Positions 28,583 to 37,248 are shown, numbered from the stretch's first letter. The stretch is 64,000 nt of DNA from Candidatus Peregrinibacteria bacterium Gr01-1014_25 (GCA_007376205.1 VMFU01000007.1:14118-78117); one strand, 5' to 3'. Made by a program: numbers and translations. The notes: generated from the sequence alone by a model not told the origin.

Positions 28583-30685
<2,103 letters not shown>

Positions 30686-30729
30686 TCGGTCCATGGCGAC
30701 TATTGCCTTTGTTTCTGCTGGCATAACCA

Positions 30730-30747
30730 CACTGTATTAATACATTG
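30730..30747. promoter_or_regulatory. Copy 1 of the AT-rich palindrome CACTGTATTAATACA(t)TG, 33 nt upstream of the TrpR-like gene
   Basis: cactgtattaatacattg has one mismatch to perfect dyad symmetry. It overlaps a TTGACA hexamer at 30744-30749. Confidence 0.6.
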
Positions 30748-30779
30748 ACACAGCTGGCGGCCGGGGAGAGTATCGGGGT

Positions 30780-31199
30780 ATGAAGCGCCGTTTCACCGAA
30801 GATAGCTGGCGGAAGGAACCGTGGTTCCGCGCGCTCGTTGCCGCACTTCGCACGGCGGCGCGCAGCGAGGAGGACATGGAGAATGTGCTACGCGATATCG
30901 GGACATTGAGTGAGCTGCATGCATGGAGCGAGCGGCTCGAGATCGCACGCCTGATTGCGAAGGGGTTGAGCTACCGACAGGTCGCCGACGCCGCGAAGGC
31001 GAGCACGACCACCGTTACGCGCGTTGCGAATGCCGTCGAGAATGGCACGGGCGGGTATCGCAAAGTCCTCCACGCCCACCGCCACCACCGCCTCCATCGA
31101 TCTTCGGAACTGTCGACGCATGTTCAACCGTTTTCGGCAGCGAAGACCATGCCATCTCCAACGACTGCTTTGCAGAAGTATCTGGGGAAGAAGGCATAG
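30780..31199 (+). CDS. TrpR-like (YerC/YecD family) DNA-binding protein
   Basis: LSELHAWSERLEIARLIAKGLSYRQVADAAKASTTTVTRVANAVENGTGGYRKVL matches the YerC/TrpR helix-turn-helix region (..TGAS.ATISRV.R.L..G..GY). Confidence 0.75.
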   Translation: MKRRFTEDSWRKEPWFRALVAALRTAARSEEDMENVLRDIGTLSELHAWSERLEIARLIAKGLSYRQVADAAKASTTTVTRVANAVENGTGGYRKVLHAHRHHRLHRSSELSTHVQPFSAAKTMPSPTTALQKYLGKKA

Positions 31200-31254
31200 G
31201 TATTGCGCATGTTTCGTAGGTACATGTTTTCTTCGAATGCCTGCACCAAAATTC

Positions 31255-31272
31255 TACTGTATTAATACAGTA
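31255..31272. promoter_or_regulatory. Copy 2 of the palindrome, TACTGTATTAATACAGTA (perfect 18-bp dyad), 44 nt upstream of ribD
   Basis: The 16-bp core ACTGTATTAATACAGT is identical to copy 3. Confidence 0.6.
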
Positions 31273-31315
31273 ATACACGCGCGAATGACGGCAGGCATAG
31301 GGTACCCTGTCCAAC

Positions 31316-32344
31316 ATGCACGATGTCTTCATACGCCGGTGCCTGGAGCTCGCCGAGCGGGGCAGAGGCTCTGTCGGGAATGGCGCGATGGTCGGGGCAG
31401 TTCTTGTGCGCAGCGGACGCATCGTTGCGGAGACGTGGCATGAGACGTTCGGCAAGCCGCATGCAGAGCGCATGCTGCTGGAAGACTATCGCGATGCAAT
31501 AGAGAAAGCCGACACGCTCTACATCAACCTTGAACCGTGCTGCCACCACGGCAAGACTCCTCCGTGCACGGACATCATTGTGGGACGAGGCATGCGGCGA
31601 GTGGTGTACGGCATGCGCGACCCGGATCATCGCGCGTCGGGAAAAGGCATGGCCGCGTTGCGTAGCGCCGGTATCGATATCATCGGTCCCGTCCTGCCCG
31701 ATCTCTGTCAGCGCTTCAATCGCGGATTCGTCAGTGCCCGCAGCATGGGGCGACCATGGATCACGCTGAAGCGAGCTGTTACGCGTGAAGGCAGTTTTTC
31801 GGCTTCCAATAGGGCTCCGTTGAAAATAACCACACATGATCAAGATGTGTGGTCGCACACATGGCTACGCTCTCGACACGATGCGATCCTCGCCGGCGTT
31901 GGGACCATTCTTGCCGACGACCCTCAATTGAATACAAGATTTGTGCAGAAAATTCATCAAGAATCAGGGCTAAACGATCATTCGACTCTTAAAAAATATG
32001 CACCGCTTCGCATCGTGCTGGATCCGAAGGGGCGTATTCCCATCGACGCCCGCGTCGTGAACGACGACAGCCGGAGTCGAACGATCGTCGTCATGGGACA
32101 GGGTTCGGTAGAGGCGCAGGACAAGGTTTCGACTTTGCGGAAGCAGGATGTCCGGGTGTTGGAGATTGCTCTGTCAGCCGACGGAAACTTCGTCTGGGCA
32201 GATCTGTGGACAGCGCTCCTCTTGCTCGATGGCGGGGCGAAGGGAATCACGAGCATCCTCGTGGAAGGAGGGGCAGAGACGTGGCGGCGCTTTCGGGAAT
32301 CGGGAAACGTCGACGAGGAAGTCACGCTCGTCGGCCAAGCCTAG
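31316..32344 (+). CDS. ribD: Bifunctional riboflavin biosynthesis deaminase/reductase
   Basis: The CMP/dCMP deaminase zinc motifs are HAERMLL and TLYINLEPCCHHGKTPPCTD. The C-terminal RibD reductase domain has ILVEGG. Confidence 0.9.
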   Translation: MHDVFIRRCLELAERGRGSVGNGAMVGAVLVRSGRIVAETWHETFGKPHAERMLLEDYRDAIEKADTLYINLEPCCHHGKTPPCTDIIVGRGMRRVVYGMRDPDHRASGKGMAALRSAGIDIIGPVLPDLCQRFNRGFVSARSMGRPWITLKRAVTREGSFSASNRAPLKITTHDQDVWSHTWLRSRHDAILAGVGTILADDPQLNTRFVQKIHQESGLNDHSTLKKYAPLRIVLDPKGRIPIDARVVNDDSRSRTIVVMGQGSVEAQDKVSTLRKQDVRVLEIALSADGNFVWADLWTALLLLDGGAKGITSILVEGGAETWRRFRESGNVDEEVTLVGQA

Positions 32345-33015
32345 AACTTTGCCAGGATGCGTTGGCCCGTTTTGTACCCGCGCATGAGCAGCCGATAGTA
32401 GAGCGGCAGGGTGCCGGTGCGCAGGAGGCGTGCCGTGAAGGATGCAAACCGCTCCCCGCATCTCTCGGCTTTGGCGAGGGCGTCGGGGCGCTTGTCGATG
32501 ACCAACCCGAATACCCCGCTGCCGGCCATGCACTTGCCCTCAAAGAACGTCCCCACGATCGTGCAGTGGTAGTAGCGCAGAGCCTCCTGCACGTGGCTGG
32601 TCGTGAAGCGCATCAGCCCCTTCCAGGCGGCCTTCGGCGCGCCTCCCGTGAAGAGGAAATACGCCGGCTTCCCGCGCATCAGGCCCTTCGTCCGGGTCTC
32701 GACATCGAGCGCGACGGCGCCCAGGCGGTCGATCGCGTTCTTGAGGTGCGCCGGCACCGAGAAGTTCCAGATCGGCGAGGCGATGACCACGCCGTCGGCG
32801 GCGAGGAACGCATCCTGCAGCGTGCAGAAGTCGTCGTCGCGGCGGCATTCCGGCTGATAGAACTCCAGCGTGAAGTGCCGGATGTTCATGTCTTTCAAAC
32901 GCATGACCTGCACGTCGGTGTCCGGTACCCGTCGCATGCCCCTGGCGAATGCCTCCGCGAGGAGGGCGCAGTTGCTCGGTTCGCTGGTTCCCGCGACGAT
33001 AACGAGAATCTTCAT
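32341..33015 (-). CDS. NAD(P)H-dependent FMN reductase (flavodoxin-like fold)
   Basis: Conserved blocks are MKILVIVAGTSEPSN and DGVVIASPIWNFSVPAHLKNAIDRL. The ATG is at 33015. It overlaps the ribD 3' end by 4 nt in convergent orientation. Confidence 0.75.
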   Translation of the reverse strand: MKILVIVAGTSEPSNCALLAEAFARGMRRVPDTDVQVMRLKDMNIRHFTLEFYQPECRRDDDFCTLQDAFLAADGVVIASPIWNFSVPAHLKNAIDRLGAVALDVETRTKGLMRGKPAYFLFTGGAPKAAWKGLMRFTTSHVQEALRYYHCTIVGTFFEGKCMAGSGVFGLVIDKRPDALAKAERCGERFASFTARLLRTGTLPLYYRLLMRGYKTGQRILAKF

Positions 33016-33266
33016 GCGCAAAGGATAGCAGGGAATCCTGGTTCCTCGGAGGCACCCTGTGAACACCCGCCGACACACCGAAAAAGTTTTCCCTTGCGGC
33101 CCAAATGAAACATGACTCCGTACTACTCATCCGACGACGGGACACATCGACTCTTCGTCGTCACGATAAGGAAAATTCATCGTCGCCCACCCGTGAAAAA
33201 CTGCGGGAAATTTTGATTGGTATTCTCCGACGATTCCTATACCTTGTGGTGTTGCACCATCAGGAG

Positions 33267-33282
33267 ACACAACATCGTGTGT
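33267..33282. promoter_or_regulatory. NrdR-box-like element ACACAACATCGTGTGT upstream of nrdJ
   Basis: It matches 13 of 16 positions of the published NrdR-box consensus acaCwAtATaTwGtgt, 28 nt before the nrdJ ATG. I found only one box. Confidence 0.3.
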
Positions 33283-33309
33283 TTCCGTTTCCCTGCTTCC
33301 CCAAGCCGT

Positions 33310-36300
33310 ATGAACCCCTCGTTGACCGCCGCGGAGGCCTCTGCGCGTCCCGTTTCCGTCCGCCGCCCTGGGAAGGGGCTCTCCATCCGCCGCGTTTTCA
33401 CGACGCCCGGGAACGATCCCTTGGAAGAAATCGTCTACGAGAAGCGCACGAGCCGGATCAAGAACCCCGACGGGTCGGTCGTCTTCGAGATGGAGGGGGC
33501 GGAAATCCCCGCGGACTGGTCGCAGGTGGCCACCGACATCGTCGTCAGCAAGTACTTCCGTAAGGCGGGGGTTCCGCAGCTCGACGCGCAGGGCAATCCG
33601 CAGCGCGATGCCGCGGGCAGCGTGGTCACCGGTCCAGAACGCAGCGTCAAGCAGGTCGTACGCCGTCTCGCCGGGTGCTGGCGGTGGTGGGGGGAGACGC
33701 ACGGGTACTTCGCCACGTCACAGGACGCGCAGGCGTTTGAGGACGAGCTCTCCCATATGCTCGTCCGCCAGATGGCGGCGCCGAACAGCCCGCAGTGGTT
33801 CAACACCGGCCTGCACTACGCTTATGGCATCACCGGCCCCTCCCAGGGGCACTACTACTGCGATCCGGCGACCGGCGAGGTGCGGCGCAGCACCGATTCG
33901 TACACGCATCCCCAGCCCCACGCGTGCTTCATTCAGTCCGTCGGCGACGACATGGTGAATGAGGGCGGCATCATGGACCTGTGGGTTCGTGAGGCGCGTC
34001 TCTTCAAGTACGGATCGGGGACCGGGACGAACTTCTCGAACCTGCGCGGAGCGGCGGAGCCGCTCTCCGGCGGCGGGAAGAGCTCTGGGCTCATGAGTTT
34101 CCTGAAGATCGGCGATCGCGCTGCCGGAGCCATCAAGTCGGGCGGGACGACCCGCAGGGCCGCGAAGATGGTCTGCCTGGACTTGGACCATCCCGACATC
34201 GAGGAATTCGTCGACTGGAAGGTCAACGAAGAGAAGAAGGTCGCGGCCATGGCGTCGGCGGGGTACGACACGGACTTCAACGGCGAGGCCTACCTGACCG
34301 TCTCGGGCCAGAACTCGAATAACTCGGTCCGCGTGCCGCATGCGTTCTTCGAGGCGATCGAGCGAGGCGGCGATTGGCCACTCTACTGGCGCACCGAGCT
34401 TCGCAAGGCGCAGAAGGAGGGGCGCGACCCCAAGCCCTCCAAGGTGCTCAAGGCTCGCGACCTGTGGGACCGCATCGGTTACGCGGCTTGGTCGTGTGCC
34501 GACCCCGGTGTCCAGTACGATACGACGATCAACGACTGGCACACGTGCCCGGCGGACGGCCGCATCAACGCGAGCAACCCCTGCAGCGAGTACATGTTCC
34601 TCGACAACACGGCTTGCAACCTCGCCTCGATCAACCTCCTTCGGTTCTTCGACCAGGAACACGGAACGTTCGCGTTGGAGCGTTATAAACATGCCATCCG
34701 CCTCTGGACCATCGTCCTGGAGATCTCCGTGCTCATGGCGCAGTTCCCGAGCAGGGAGATCGCCGAATTGAGCTACCGGTTCCGCACCCTGGGCCTCGGC
34801 TATGCCAACCTGGGCGCGCTGCTCATGCGCATGGGCATTCCGTACGACTCTCCCAAGGGCCGTGCGATCTGTGCGGCGCTGACGTCGATCCTCACGGGCG
34901 AGTCCTACGCGGCGTCGGCGGAGATGTCGCGGGAGTTGGGGGCGTTCCCGGGCTATACGCCCAATCGCGAGCACATGCTGCGCGTCATTCGGAATCACCG
35001 CCGCGCCGCCTACAATGCGCCGGCGAAGGAATACGAGGCGTTGAACGTCGTTCCGGTCGGCATTGATCAGGATCTGTGCCCCACGGACATGCTGCAGACG
35101 GCGAAAGAATGCTGGGACCGCGCGCTCGTCATGGGCGAGGAGCACGGCTATCGCAACGCCCAGTCTACGGTCATAGCCCCGACAGGGACGATCGGCCTGC
35201 TCATGGATTGCGACACGACCGGCATCGAGCCGGATTTCGCTCTCGTGAAGTTCAAGAAGCTTGCCGGCGGCGGATATATGAAGATCGCCAACCAGTCCGT
35301 CGAGCCCGCGCTCCACGCGCTCGGCTATGGCCAGGCGGAGGTCCGCGAGATCATGCGGTACGTCATGGGGACGATGAGTTTGGAAGGCGCGTCGCACGTG
35401 AACCGCCGTTCCCTGCGTGAGAAAGGGTTTACCGACGAGGACATCGCCAAAATCGAGCAGCAGCTGCCGCAGGTCTTCGACCTGTCCTTCGCCTTCAACC
35501 GCTGGGCGCTGGGCGACGCCACGCTCAAGCGCCTGGGCTTCACCGATGCCCAGATCAACGATCCGTCGTTCCACCTCCTCAAGGCGCTGGGCTTCACGGA
35601 TGACGAGATCGCCGAGGCGAACGTCGTCGTTTGCGGCCACATGACCGTTGAAGGCGCGCCGCATCTCAAGCCCGAGCATCTGCCCGTCTTCGACTGCGCC
35701 AACAAGTGCGGAGCCATCGGCAAGCGCTTCATCGACGTCGAGGGGCACATCCGCATGATGGCCGCCGCCCAACCGTTCATTTCGGGCGCGATCAGCAAGA
35801 CGATCAACCTGCCTCACGAGGCCACCGTCGAGGACATCAAGAAGTCGTATCTCCTGAGCTGGAAACTGGGCCTCAAGGCGAACGCTCTCTACCGCGACGG
35901 CTGCAAGATGAGCCAGGCGCTCAATACGAGGGCGGACACGAAGGAATCGAAGACGACGGAGGTGGTGAAGGAGATCGTCGAGAAGATCGTGTACAAGGAG
36001 ATGCCGCGCCGCCGCAAACTGCCGGACGAGCGCATGTCGGTAACGCACAAGTTCTCCATCGCCGGACACGAGGGGTACGTCATCGTCGGGCTCTACGAGG
36101 ACGGCTCTCCGGGCGAGATGTTCATCAAAATGAACAAGGAAGGATCGACGCTCTCGGGCATCATGAACAGCCTGACGTTGAGCCTGTCGATGAACCTGCA
36201 GTACGGCGTGCCGCTCGAGGTGCTCTGCGAAAAGCTCGTCCACACGCGCTTCGAGCCGTCGGGTTTCACGGCGAACGAGGAGATTCCGATGGCCAAGAGT

Positions 36301-36678
36301 TTCATGGATTACCTGGGCCGCTGGCTGGCGCTCAAATTCCTGACGAAGGAGAAGGCGAAGCAGTTCCACAATGCCGAGCTCGTCGAGAAGGCCTACGCTA
36401 CCGGGACGAAGAGCAAGGATGCCTTCGCGATGCGATTGCCGGTGCTCGACGAGGGCGCGCAGGTCCCGACGGACTTCCTGGTCCGTACCGAGGAGAAGAC
36501 GGCCCACGAAGTCGAGGAGGCGTCCTCCAAGGTGGCGACGGTGACCACCAAGCGCGAGCAGGCCAAGCTCCAGGGCTACACCGGGTCGATCTGCGGCGCC
36601 TGCGGCTCCGTGAAGGTGAAGCGCAACGGCAGCTGCGAGGTCTGCATCGATTGCGGCGCAACCTCCGGGTGCAGCTAG
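33310..36678 (+). CDS. nrdJ: Adenosylcobalamin-dependent (class II) ribonucleotide reductase
   Basis: Conserved blocks are VVSKYFRKAG, MAAPNSPQWFNTG, ACFIQSVGDDM, FKYGSGTG, NPCSEYMFLDNTACNLASINL and TIAPTGTIG. The C-terminal Cys ribbon is CGACGS..CEVCIDCG. The ATG is at 33310. Confidence 0.93.
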   Translation: MNPSLTAAEASARPVSVRRPGKGLSIRRVFTTPGNDPLEEIVYEKRTSRIKNPDGSVVFEMEGAEIPADWSQVATDIVVSKYFRKAGVPQLDAQGNPQRDAAGSVVTGPERSVKQVVRRLAGCWRWWGETHGYFATSQDAQAFEDELSHMLVRQMAAPNSPQWFNTGLHYAYGITGPSQGHYYCDPATGEVRRSTDSYTHPQPHACFIQSVGDDMVNEGGIMDLWVREARLFKYGSGTGTNFSNLRGAAEPLSGGGKSSGLMSFLKIGDRAAGAIKSGGTTRRAAKMVCLDLDHPDIEEFVDWKVNEEKKVAAMASAGYDTDFNGEAYLTVSGQNSNNSVRVPHAFFEAIERGGDWPLYWRTELRKAQKEGRDPKPSKVLKARDLWDRIGYAAWSCADPGVQYDTTINDWHTCPADGRINASNPCSEYMFLDNTACNLASINLLRFFDQEHGTFALERYKHAIRLWTIVLEISVLMAQFPSREIAELSYRFRTLGLGYANLGALLMRMGIPYDSPKGRAICAALTSILTGESYAASAEMSRELGAFPGYTPNREHMLRVIRNHRRAAYNAPAKEYEALNVVPVGIDQDLCPTDMLQTAKECWDRALVMGEEHGYRNAQSTVIAPTGTIGLLMDCDTTGIEPDFALVKFKKLAGGGYMKIANQSVEPALHALGYGQAEVREIMRYVMGTMSLEGASHVNRRSLREKGFTDEDIAKIEQQLPQVFDLSFAFNRWALGDATLKRLGFTDAQINDPSFHLLKALGFTDDEIAEANVVVCGHMTVEGAPHLKPEHLPVFDCANKCGAIGKRFIDVEGHIRMMAAAQPFISGAISKTINLPHEATVEDIKKSYLLSWKLGLKANALYRDGCKMSQALNTRADTKESKTTEVVKEIVEKIVYKEMPRRRKLPDERMSVTHKFSIAGHEGYVIVGLYEDGSPGEMFIKMNKEGSTLSGIMNSLTLSLSMNLQYGVPLEVLCEKLVHTRFEPSGFTANEEIPMAKSFMDYLGRWLALKFLTKEKAKQFHNAELVEKAYATGTKSKDAFAMRLPVLDEGAQVPTDFLVRTEEKTAHEVEEASSKVATVTTKREQAKLQGYTGSICGACGSVKVKRNGSCEVCIDCGATSGCS

Positions 36679-36731
36679 GCATCCCGGACGGACGGTGACC
36701 GTCTTTTGTTGCAACCCTTGGGAAGGTGTAA

Positions 36732-36749
36732 CACTGTATTAATACAGTG
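36732..36749. promoter_or_regulatory. Copy 3 of the palindrome, CACTGTATTAATACAGTG (perfect 18-bp dyad), downstream of nrdJ and 2 nt before the first ATG of the 36751 ORF
   Basis: The 16-bp core is identical to copy 2. Confidence 0.6.
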
Positions 36750-36750
36750 A

Positions 36751-37248
36751 ATGGGGAGGAGCGGTTCTGTGCATCCAGAAAGGGAAATGGGCTATCATTC
36801 CCGCATGTCCGATCCCTTCCTGGATCATCTGCCATCGCAGGAGCGCGAGAAGATCCGCAAGCGGCTCCGCAGCCCCGAGGCGTATGAGGCTCTGCGGGAC
36901 AAGGTGAAGGGACCCGAGGATCTGGAGAGGGAACTGCGTAGGTCCGAGCAGCTTGCAGAACTCCAGTTCAGCCTGGAGACGGAACCCCACATGCGCGGAG
37001 CGCTCCGGGAACAGATGCGGGAGGATATTCAGGAGAAGGGGATCGATGCCATCCTGGAGGCCGATGCACTCTCTCCCGAGGGCAAAGGAGCCATCGAGCA
37101 AGGCAAGTTCGATGTCCGCGTCGATGCTCATCCCCAGTCGCATGAGGATGCGATCATCGCGGTGCCGGAGGGCAACGTGCAGGAGAAGGCGCCGGTGAAG
37201 ACGGTTTTCAGCGACCGGTACGTGGGGCAGTTTGTGAAGAGGGTGTAG
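36751..37248 (+). CDS. Hypothetical acidic soluble protein
   Basis: ORF with E/R/L-rich ordinary composition. The start is ambiguous: ATG 36751 lies 2 nt after the palindrome, and alternatives are 36787 and 36805. Confidence 0.5.
   Translation: MGRSGSVHPEREMGYHSRMSDPFLDHLPSQEREKIRKRLRSPEAYEALRDKVKGPEDLERELRRSEQLAELQFSLETEPHMRGALREQMREDIQEKGIDAILEADALSPEGKGAIEQGKFDVRVDAHPQSHEDAIIAVPEGNVQEKAPVKTVFSDRYVGQFVKRV

Follow-up and report, generated by a model that had tools for sequence, protein, structure and literature searches.

An AT-rich palindrome as the likely operator of a YerC/HisR-type TrpR-family regulator in a Candidatus Peregrinibacteria genome

We analyzed a stretch of 64,000 nucleotides (nt) of Candidatus Peregrinibacteria bacterium Gr01-1014_25 (VMFU01000007.1:14118-78117, below called the window), focusing on a short AT-rich palindrome that occurs three times in the neighborhood of a gene for a TrpR-family protein of 139 amino acids (aa; 30780-31199, + strand). 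The window belongs to contig C4 of a genome (G000) of 1,124,707 bp in 12 contigs, with 61.7% G+C and a rated completeness of 99.9%. Judged by sequence comparison, the palindrome is likely the operator of this regulator, which is of the YerC/HisR type. A link to the adjacent YerC-like protein had been proposed in the first-pass annotation of the window, and it gained support from the protein family, from a dyad in the orthologous promoters, from the joint absence of gene and dyad, and from TGTA...TACA arms with an 8-bp phasing. That a TrpR-family repressor acts on a palindromic operator and regulates its own gene is textbook knowledge, and the pair described here is most likely an ordinary repressor-operator system in a little-studied lineage. 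Experimental knowledge of transcription control in bacteria of the candidate phyla radiation is almost nil, and the locus offers a concrete test case with one 139-aa protein, a 16-bp site in five copies, and clear predictions on key bases.

Copies of the palindrome and the dyad in orthologous promoters

The 16-mer ACTGTATTAATACAGT is present exactly at 31256-31271 and 36733-36748, and with 1 mismatch (ACTGTATTAATACATT) at 30731-30746, just as annotated before. The two identical copies are indeed perfect 18-bp dyads. The distances to start codons given earlier were also correct, with 33 nt between the 1-mismatch copy and the TrpR-like gene (ATG at 30780) and 44 nt between the copy at 31256-31271 and ribD (ATG at 31316). 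The recurrence exceeds chance, as had been argued: the window holds only these three copies at up to 3 mismatches, with 0.01 matches expected and none of 100 shuffles reaching 3. Genome wide, five copies were found at up to 1 mismatch, the next best match had 4 mismatches, and a reversed-pattern control yielded 0. All five copies are intergenic, none being located within a gene, and each lies 5' of a + strand gene. Their similarity is confined to ~24 bp, and the behavior of a generic repeat was not observed.

The sites are strandless. Site 1 (30731-30746), ahead of the regulator gene, contains the core dyad TGTATTAATACA at 30733-30744. Site 2 (31255-31277), 57 nt past the stop codon of the regulator gene and ahead of ribD, consists of the perfect palindrome TACTGTATTAATACAGTA (31255-31272) and a third half-site TAATACA (31271-31277). 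Site 3 (36727-36749), upstream of a conserved hypothetical gene that follows nrdJ, combines the perfect palindrome CACTGTATTAATACAGTG (36732-36749) with an upstream half-site TGTAACAC (36727-36734). Site 4 (C4:80438-80453, corresponding to window position 66321 and thus just past the window end) is found 5' of a gene for an M24 Xaa-Pro aminopeptidase (pepP), and site 5 (C12:334068-334083) 5' of a rluB-type pseudouridine synthase gene, with a gene for an XRE helix-turn-helix (HTH) protein oriented divergently.

For comparison within the bacterial family, a sample of 61 genomes, one per genus, was used. An ortholog of the regulator was present in 52 of them, and 49 upstream regions were collected. 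A symmetric 12-mer weight matrix was scored within 150 nt upstream, using thresholds of 10 and 14 bits. The model converged on yGTdkTAAmhACr, a TGTnnTAAnACA-type dyad in the regulators' own promoters, with G2, T3, T6, A7, A10, and C11 invariant across the family. A related dyad, looked for upstream of the yerC-like genes of relatives as had been suggested, scored 10 bits or higher in 32 of the 49 regulator promoters, compared to 2 of 28 control promoters (one of the two being site 3 of G000 itself) and 31 of 980 shuffles. With the threshold raised to 14 bits, the numbers were 19 of 49 promoters versus 1 of 980 shuffles, an enrichment that is somewhat inflated because the matrix was trained on the promoters it scores, the contrast being still large. 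In 18 of the 32 dyad-bearing promoters the dyad starts 45-50 nt ahead of the ATG and abuts TTGACA, followed by a 16-17-nt spacer, a TAnnnT box, 6-8 nt, and the ATG. This layout suggests a leaderless mRNA, with the dyad centered near -41.5 and touching the -35 box.

The exact 16-mer was not conserved in 40 relatives, even within the genus; only scattered matches with 1-2 mismatches were obtained, and these were dismissed as chance hits since they lay inside long open reading frames (ORFs) on inspection. The operator sequence evidently drifts between genera, so that a search for the exact word fails and footprinting anchored on the orthologs is needed. Gene and dyad are also absent together. Four genomes (G008, G073, G022, G021) carry fusA followed directly by ribD, with neither a regulator nor a dyad of at least 9.5 bits in 2.3-2.6 kb, and G067 retains a fragment of the regulator gene and no dyad. 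Because the dyad forms part of the promoter of the regulator itself, the joint loss counts as supportive and not as fully independent evidence.

For the regulator gene of G000 a promoter is predicted at 30745-30773 (+ strand), with TTGACA as -35 box (30745-30750), a 17-nt spacer, and GAGTAT as -10 box (30768-30773). The resulting order is TGTATTAATACA-TTGACA-17 nt-GAGTAT-6 nt-ATG, the dyad abutting and overlapping the -35 box. With only 6 nt between the -10 box and the ATG, the mRNA is probably leaderless. A consensus promoter scan missed this promoter because GAGTAT matches 3 of the 6 TATAAT positions.

Operator architecture and the regulator protein

Aligning 30 promoters on the dyad revealed GT at position -7 in 15 and AC at position +17 in 18 of them, compared to at most 4 of 30 for GT and at most 7 of 30 for AC at background offsets, with dyad core and -35 box excluded. 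The GT peak at +1 and the AC peak at +9 are due to the construction of the alignment. The array GT(-7) GT(+1) / AC(+9) AC(+17) is symmetric about the dyad center, and the extra half-sites form 20-bp TGTA-N12-TACA palindromes such as TGTATTAACGTGATAATACA. Each of the five sites of G000 possesses one such satellite, located downstream at sites 1, 2, and 5 and upstream at sites 3 and 4. At site 1 it is the AC at 30750-30751, 8 bp downstream and within TTGACAC, at site 2 the third half-site, which completes the 20-bp palindrome TGTATTA-N6-TAATACA (TGTATTAATACAGTAATACA, 31258-31277), and at site 3 the upstream half-site, with its GT exactly 8 bp ahead of the core GT. TrpR dimers reportedly bind in tandem at half-sites with an 8-bp period (Lawson and Carey 1993), an arrangement that the array would also fit.

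Published operators of TrpR/HisR regulators are 20-bp palindromes, for example TGTAnTArnnnnyTnTTACA and TGTAcTnGTnnACnAgTACA (PMC9413887). The outline of the array matches these operators, and the 12-bp core is a variant of their layout. The earlier suggestion of a likeness to the trp operator of Escherichia coli holds for the architecture and fails for the sequence register (ACTGTA-TTAA-TACAGT versus ACTAG-TTAA-CTAGT).

These features suggest the following mechanism. A dimer of the regulator would bind the core dyad TGTATTAATACA, and the half-site 8 bp away, creating an overlapping 20-bp TGTAnTA-N6-TAnTACA palindrome, would accommodate a second dimer in tandem. Since the array borders on the -35 box of the regulator's own promoter and overlaps it, the regulator most likely represses itself. 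Binding would be assisted by a small-molecule co-repressor, by homology possibly histidine. In most relatives the regulator promoter would also drive the downstream ribD, and in some of them hisI-hisG.

The protein matched the Pfam family PF01371 (Trp_repressor) with 4.8e-18 and 65.4 bits (cut-off 27) over residues 18-99, which comprise the HTH core. It passed the NCBIfam model TIGR02531 for YerC/YecD with 51.1 bits (cut-off 42.2) and failed the TrpR equivalog model TIGR01321 with 29.7 bits (cut-off 67.25). The closest solved structures are the YerC-type entries 3g1c, 3kor, and 3frw (PDB matches at ~2e-7). The DNA-reading segment ASTTTVTRV resembles that of the HisR structures, and in the alignment with solved HisR-type structures the long helix has largely kept its acidic residues, a feature without bearing on histidine as co-repressor. 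An alignment of the 49 orthologs uncovered segments specific for the bacterial family, namely KRRFTEDSWRKEPWF at the N-terminus, a seemingly invariant HRHHR(L/M) right after the HTH, and LQKYL at the C-terminus beyond a variable linker, which are not present in the YerC proteins of ~100 aa. The His-rich HRHHR motif is a possible metal- or ligand-binding site.

YerC of Bacillus subtilis is HisR, a histidine-dependent repressor, and about half of the hisR genes are preceded by such an operator themselves (PMC9413887). The regulator of G000 resembles YerC and its orthologs in family membership, in the TIGR02531 score above cut-off and the best PDB matches, in the site ahead of its own gene as for that half of the hisR genes, and in the palindromic form of the operator, whose TGTA...TACA-type arms recur in the HisR motif of proteobacteria. 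A further likeness is found in the gene neighborhood, as hisG, present in 10 of the 61 family genomes, adjoins the regulator in 8 of these 10. By family and by ancestral neighborhood, the predicted regulator is of the HisR type. Unlike HisR, it has a regulon in G000 without histidine genes and ribD as conserved neighbor, the operator shows a 12-bp core with satellites phased by 8 bp instead of a single 20-bp palindrome, and the protein is ~40 aa longer, with the conserved HRHHR and LQKYL motifs. With E. coli TrpR, known for its trpEDCBA, aroH, and trpR operators, it shares the Pfam family, autoregulation (predicted here), the 20-bp TGTA-N12-TACA outline, and the 8-bp half-site period; it differs by failing the TrpR equivalog model, by the operator register, and by the lack of trp targets.

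Weighing of alternative explanations

Several observations weigh against the palindrome being the operator of this regulator. Besides the inflated enrichment and the partial dependence of gene and site loss mentioned above, 17 of 49 orthologous promoters were without a clear dyad, and the 12-bp core is 8 bp short of the published 20-bp operators. The orthologs of the post-nrdJ gene, pepP, and rluB showed no dyad, with best scores of at most 7.5 bits compared to 16-17 bits in G000, and in the 9.7-kb syntenic region of a same-genus genome only the regulator's own site was found. Sites 3-5 thus have no counterparts in relatives and are considered recent acquisitions of G000. They are also positioned ~60-90 bp upstream of presumed leaderless starts, which is not the classical position for a repressor. 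A parallel is provided by the genome G003, which contains five perfect copies of GCGTATTAATACGC and one with 1 mismatch (L081, L085, L088, L173, L174), including one in the regulator's promoter; however, three of the perfect copies are placed where two genes converge and have no evident target. All G003 copies share the flanks aaaaTGACA...TAAAACAAT. Those at convergent genes follow a ferredoxin-reductase-like gene and an anti-sigma-like gene or separate a tRNA-Arg gene from the 3' end of ribBA. No relevant ncRNA or tRNA genes were found downstream of the sites, the single tRNA-Arg near a G003 site being convergent with the site. A possible link via M24 proteins, with pepP as target in G000 and a map gene near the 1-mismatch site of G003, was discarded as coincidence, as different orthologs are involved.

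Two further explanations do without a specific regulator. The palindrome might be a promoter element read by RNA polymerase, either an extended -10 box (TGTATTAAT), an alternative already raised in the first-pass annotation, or an UP-like AT-rich block. Its AT-richness and its consistently intergenic position upstream of + strand genes would agree with this, and in G003 and G054 the dyad fills the spacer between TTGACA and TACAAT. Nevertheless, only five copies face roughly a thousand genes, other promoters noted in the window are without the palindrome, and the relatives possess a complete and separate -35/-10 pair following the dyad at leaderless-start spacing. Furthermore, drift of the dyad to TGTGGTAAAACA or CGTGATAACACA abolishes TATTAAT and keeps the symmetric positions (GT/TA/AC), so that we consider a promoter element, including the palindromic extended -10 box, very improbable. 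Hardly more can be said for a generic short repeat of the REP/MITE type or a weak bidirectional terminator hairpin lacking a specific regulatory partner. The copies within the genome are identical, sites 1-3 lie 46-57 nt past stop codons, and G003 has three perfect copies at convergent genes, most being followed by tgtcaTTTT. However, there are just 5-6 copies, with similarity ending at ~24 bp, and the stem would comprise merely 5-6 A/T-rich pairs with a loop of 2-4 nt and no T-run after it in G000. Real terminator-like hairpins stand separately, just upstream of sites 1 and 3. The element also keeps its place in the promoter of one particular gene in different genera, although their intergenic DNA cannot otherwise be aligned, and a repeat of this kind is accordingly given very little credence.

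It is also improbable, if not quite to the same degree, that the sites are bound by a different regulator of the same cell. The XRE HTH gene starts 78 nt from site 5; a homolog of its product at E<=1e-3 was, however, found in none of the five dyad-bearing genomes G001, G003, G071, G046, and G054. The genome also encodes LexA and another PF01371 protein. The gene for the latter, on contig C12, is immediately preceded by a different 26-bp palindrome. For LexA, the outer CTGT...ACAG of the palindrome recalls the SOS box, which has the spacing CTGT-N8-ACAG. The palindrome shows CTGT-N6-ACAG instead, its outer arms are not kept in relatives (GCGT...ACGC), and no copy of the dyad precedes lexA itself (C9:~17.9 kb). 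The operator of the YerC/HisR-type regulator hence remains the reading that we prefer.

The second TrpR-family gene (C12:58730-59149; PF01371, 34 bits) is accompanied by the 26-bp palindrome CCTACAATTATTTCAATAATTGTAGG (region to 59193), and near-identical copies at C12:77564, 115281, and 267003 bring the number in the genome to four. Together they resemble another small regulon of this type. Each of the two paralogs adjoins its own palindrome, which serves as an internal control. At C12:266953-266964 the sequence TGTAGTAACACA scored 16.1 bits with the family matrix and may be a sixth, weaker site of the YerC/HisR-type regulator. A glycosyltransferase-like ORF contains it at its extreme 3' end, and one of the 26-bp palindromes is 40 nt away. 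At C9:17850-18500 the lexA gene is followed by a Y-family polymerase (dinB-like) gene, and its promoter region shows TTGACA-17-TATCAT flanked by two GTGTAC words, which may be a local SOS box.

Downstream genes and the histidine and riboflavin context

The conserved downstream neighbor of the regulator is ribD (31316-32344, + strand), encoding the bifunctional deaminase/reductase of riboflavin synthesis as assigned by TIGR00326 (206 bits, cut-off 156), Pfam, and synteny. Among the 42 relatives having both genes, the two were at most 3 kb apart in 34 and at most 250 nt apart in 15, and in 34 the regulator came first, with both genes on one strand. A ribD gene that follows directly is probably transcribed from the regulator's promoter. 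In four genera (G000, G049, G046, G071) ribD is preceded by a separate dyad, 51-70 nt ahead of the start; in G071 the CCGTGGTAAAACAGT ahead of ribD matches the genome's own variant CTGTGGTAAAACATT ahead of the regulator. A dyad after the regulator's stop codon is restricted to few genera and goes along with a separate promoter for ribD. The TrpR-like homologs of other families in the class were much more distant, and none was found near ribD.

In several relatives hisI and hisG are located between regulator and ribD (L020 at G010:C37:13275-14560, L025, L029, L036, and others). This hisI-hisG pair is isolated, the rest of the histidine pathway not being nearby. The genome G000 contains no hisG, hisI, or hisD, hence the regulon there is without a histidine gene.

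The first-pass annotation had seen no flavin mononucleotide (FMN) riboswitch in the ribD leader. This was confirmed with RF00050, for which positive controls matched: none was detected in the ribD leader, upstream of ribE-ribH-ribBA, in the whole genome, or in the 61 family genomes. A complete riboflavin pathway has been reported for the family (PMC4736985). In G000 the ribE-ribH-ribBA cluster is located at C8:59089-63008 and carries no dyad, so no claim of a dedicated riboflavin regulator is made. The reading as a pure riboflavin regulator is weakened by this cluster and by the hisI-hisG genes adjoining the regulator in relatives. The link between the regulator and ribD thus persists in a riboflavin-making family in which the 61 genomes searched yielded no FMN riboswitch. 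Between ribH and ribBA an ORF for a secreted-looking protein of 472 aa was observed.

For the history of the regulon in G000 we propose that hisI-hisG were lost and that ribD obtained its own operator copy, and that three further perfect copies would have arisen ahead of the hypothetical, the Xaa-Pro aminopeptidase, and the rluB-type pseudouridine synthase genes. A more far-reaching version, that a HisR-type repressor was kept after the loss of hisI-hisG and rewired with four new perfect operators, perhaps serving today as a global regulator on a small scale, is speculative and rather unlikely as a whole; at that same low level of confidence it could include riboflavin synthesis being controlled by a protein, which possibly recognizes a new ligand via the HRHHR/LQKYL extension. 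Already under the simpler history, the locus illustrates regulon turnover in a minimal genome, where a histidine-type repressor outlives the histidine genes, keeps its link to ribD, and acquires sites.

The gene downstream of site 3 (36805-37248, + strand) encodes a conserved hypothetical protein of 147 aa (MSDPF...), for which no Pfam or NCBIfam family was found. Orthologs with the same synteny occur in 43 of 61 genomes. Its start is most likely the ATG at 36805 and not that at 36751, because the orthologs align there and a -10-like TATCAT (36793-36798) stands 6 nt upstream; the mRNA is probably leaderless. Site 3 had been described as lying immediately before this ORF, whereas it is actually ~57 nt ahead of the likely start and specific for G000. 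Terminator-like hairpins with a T-run were found on the + strand at 30681-30707 after fusA (end of elongation factor G at 30685), just ahead of site 1, and at 36686-36704 after nrdJ (stop at 36678), just ahead of site 3, which places these two sites at the start of new transcription units.

Between ribD and nrdJ, a gene for an NADPH-dependent FMN reductase/flavodoxin-like protein (32341-33078, - strand) is convergent with ribD. The + strand ORF calls at 32206-33108 and 33105-33563 look like out-of-frame artefacts. Leaderless mRNAs, with a TAnnnT box 6-8 nt ahead of the ATG and no Shine-Dalgarno sequence, seem to be common in the family; starts of this type were observed for yerC (30768-30782), the post-nrdJ gene (36793-36807), pepP (C4:80520-80535), rluB (C12:334130-334146), and several ribD orthologs.

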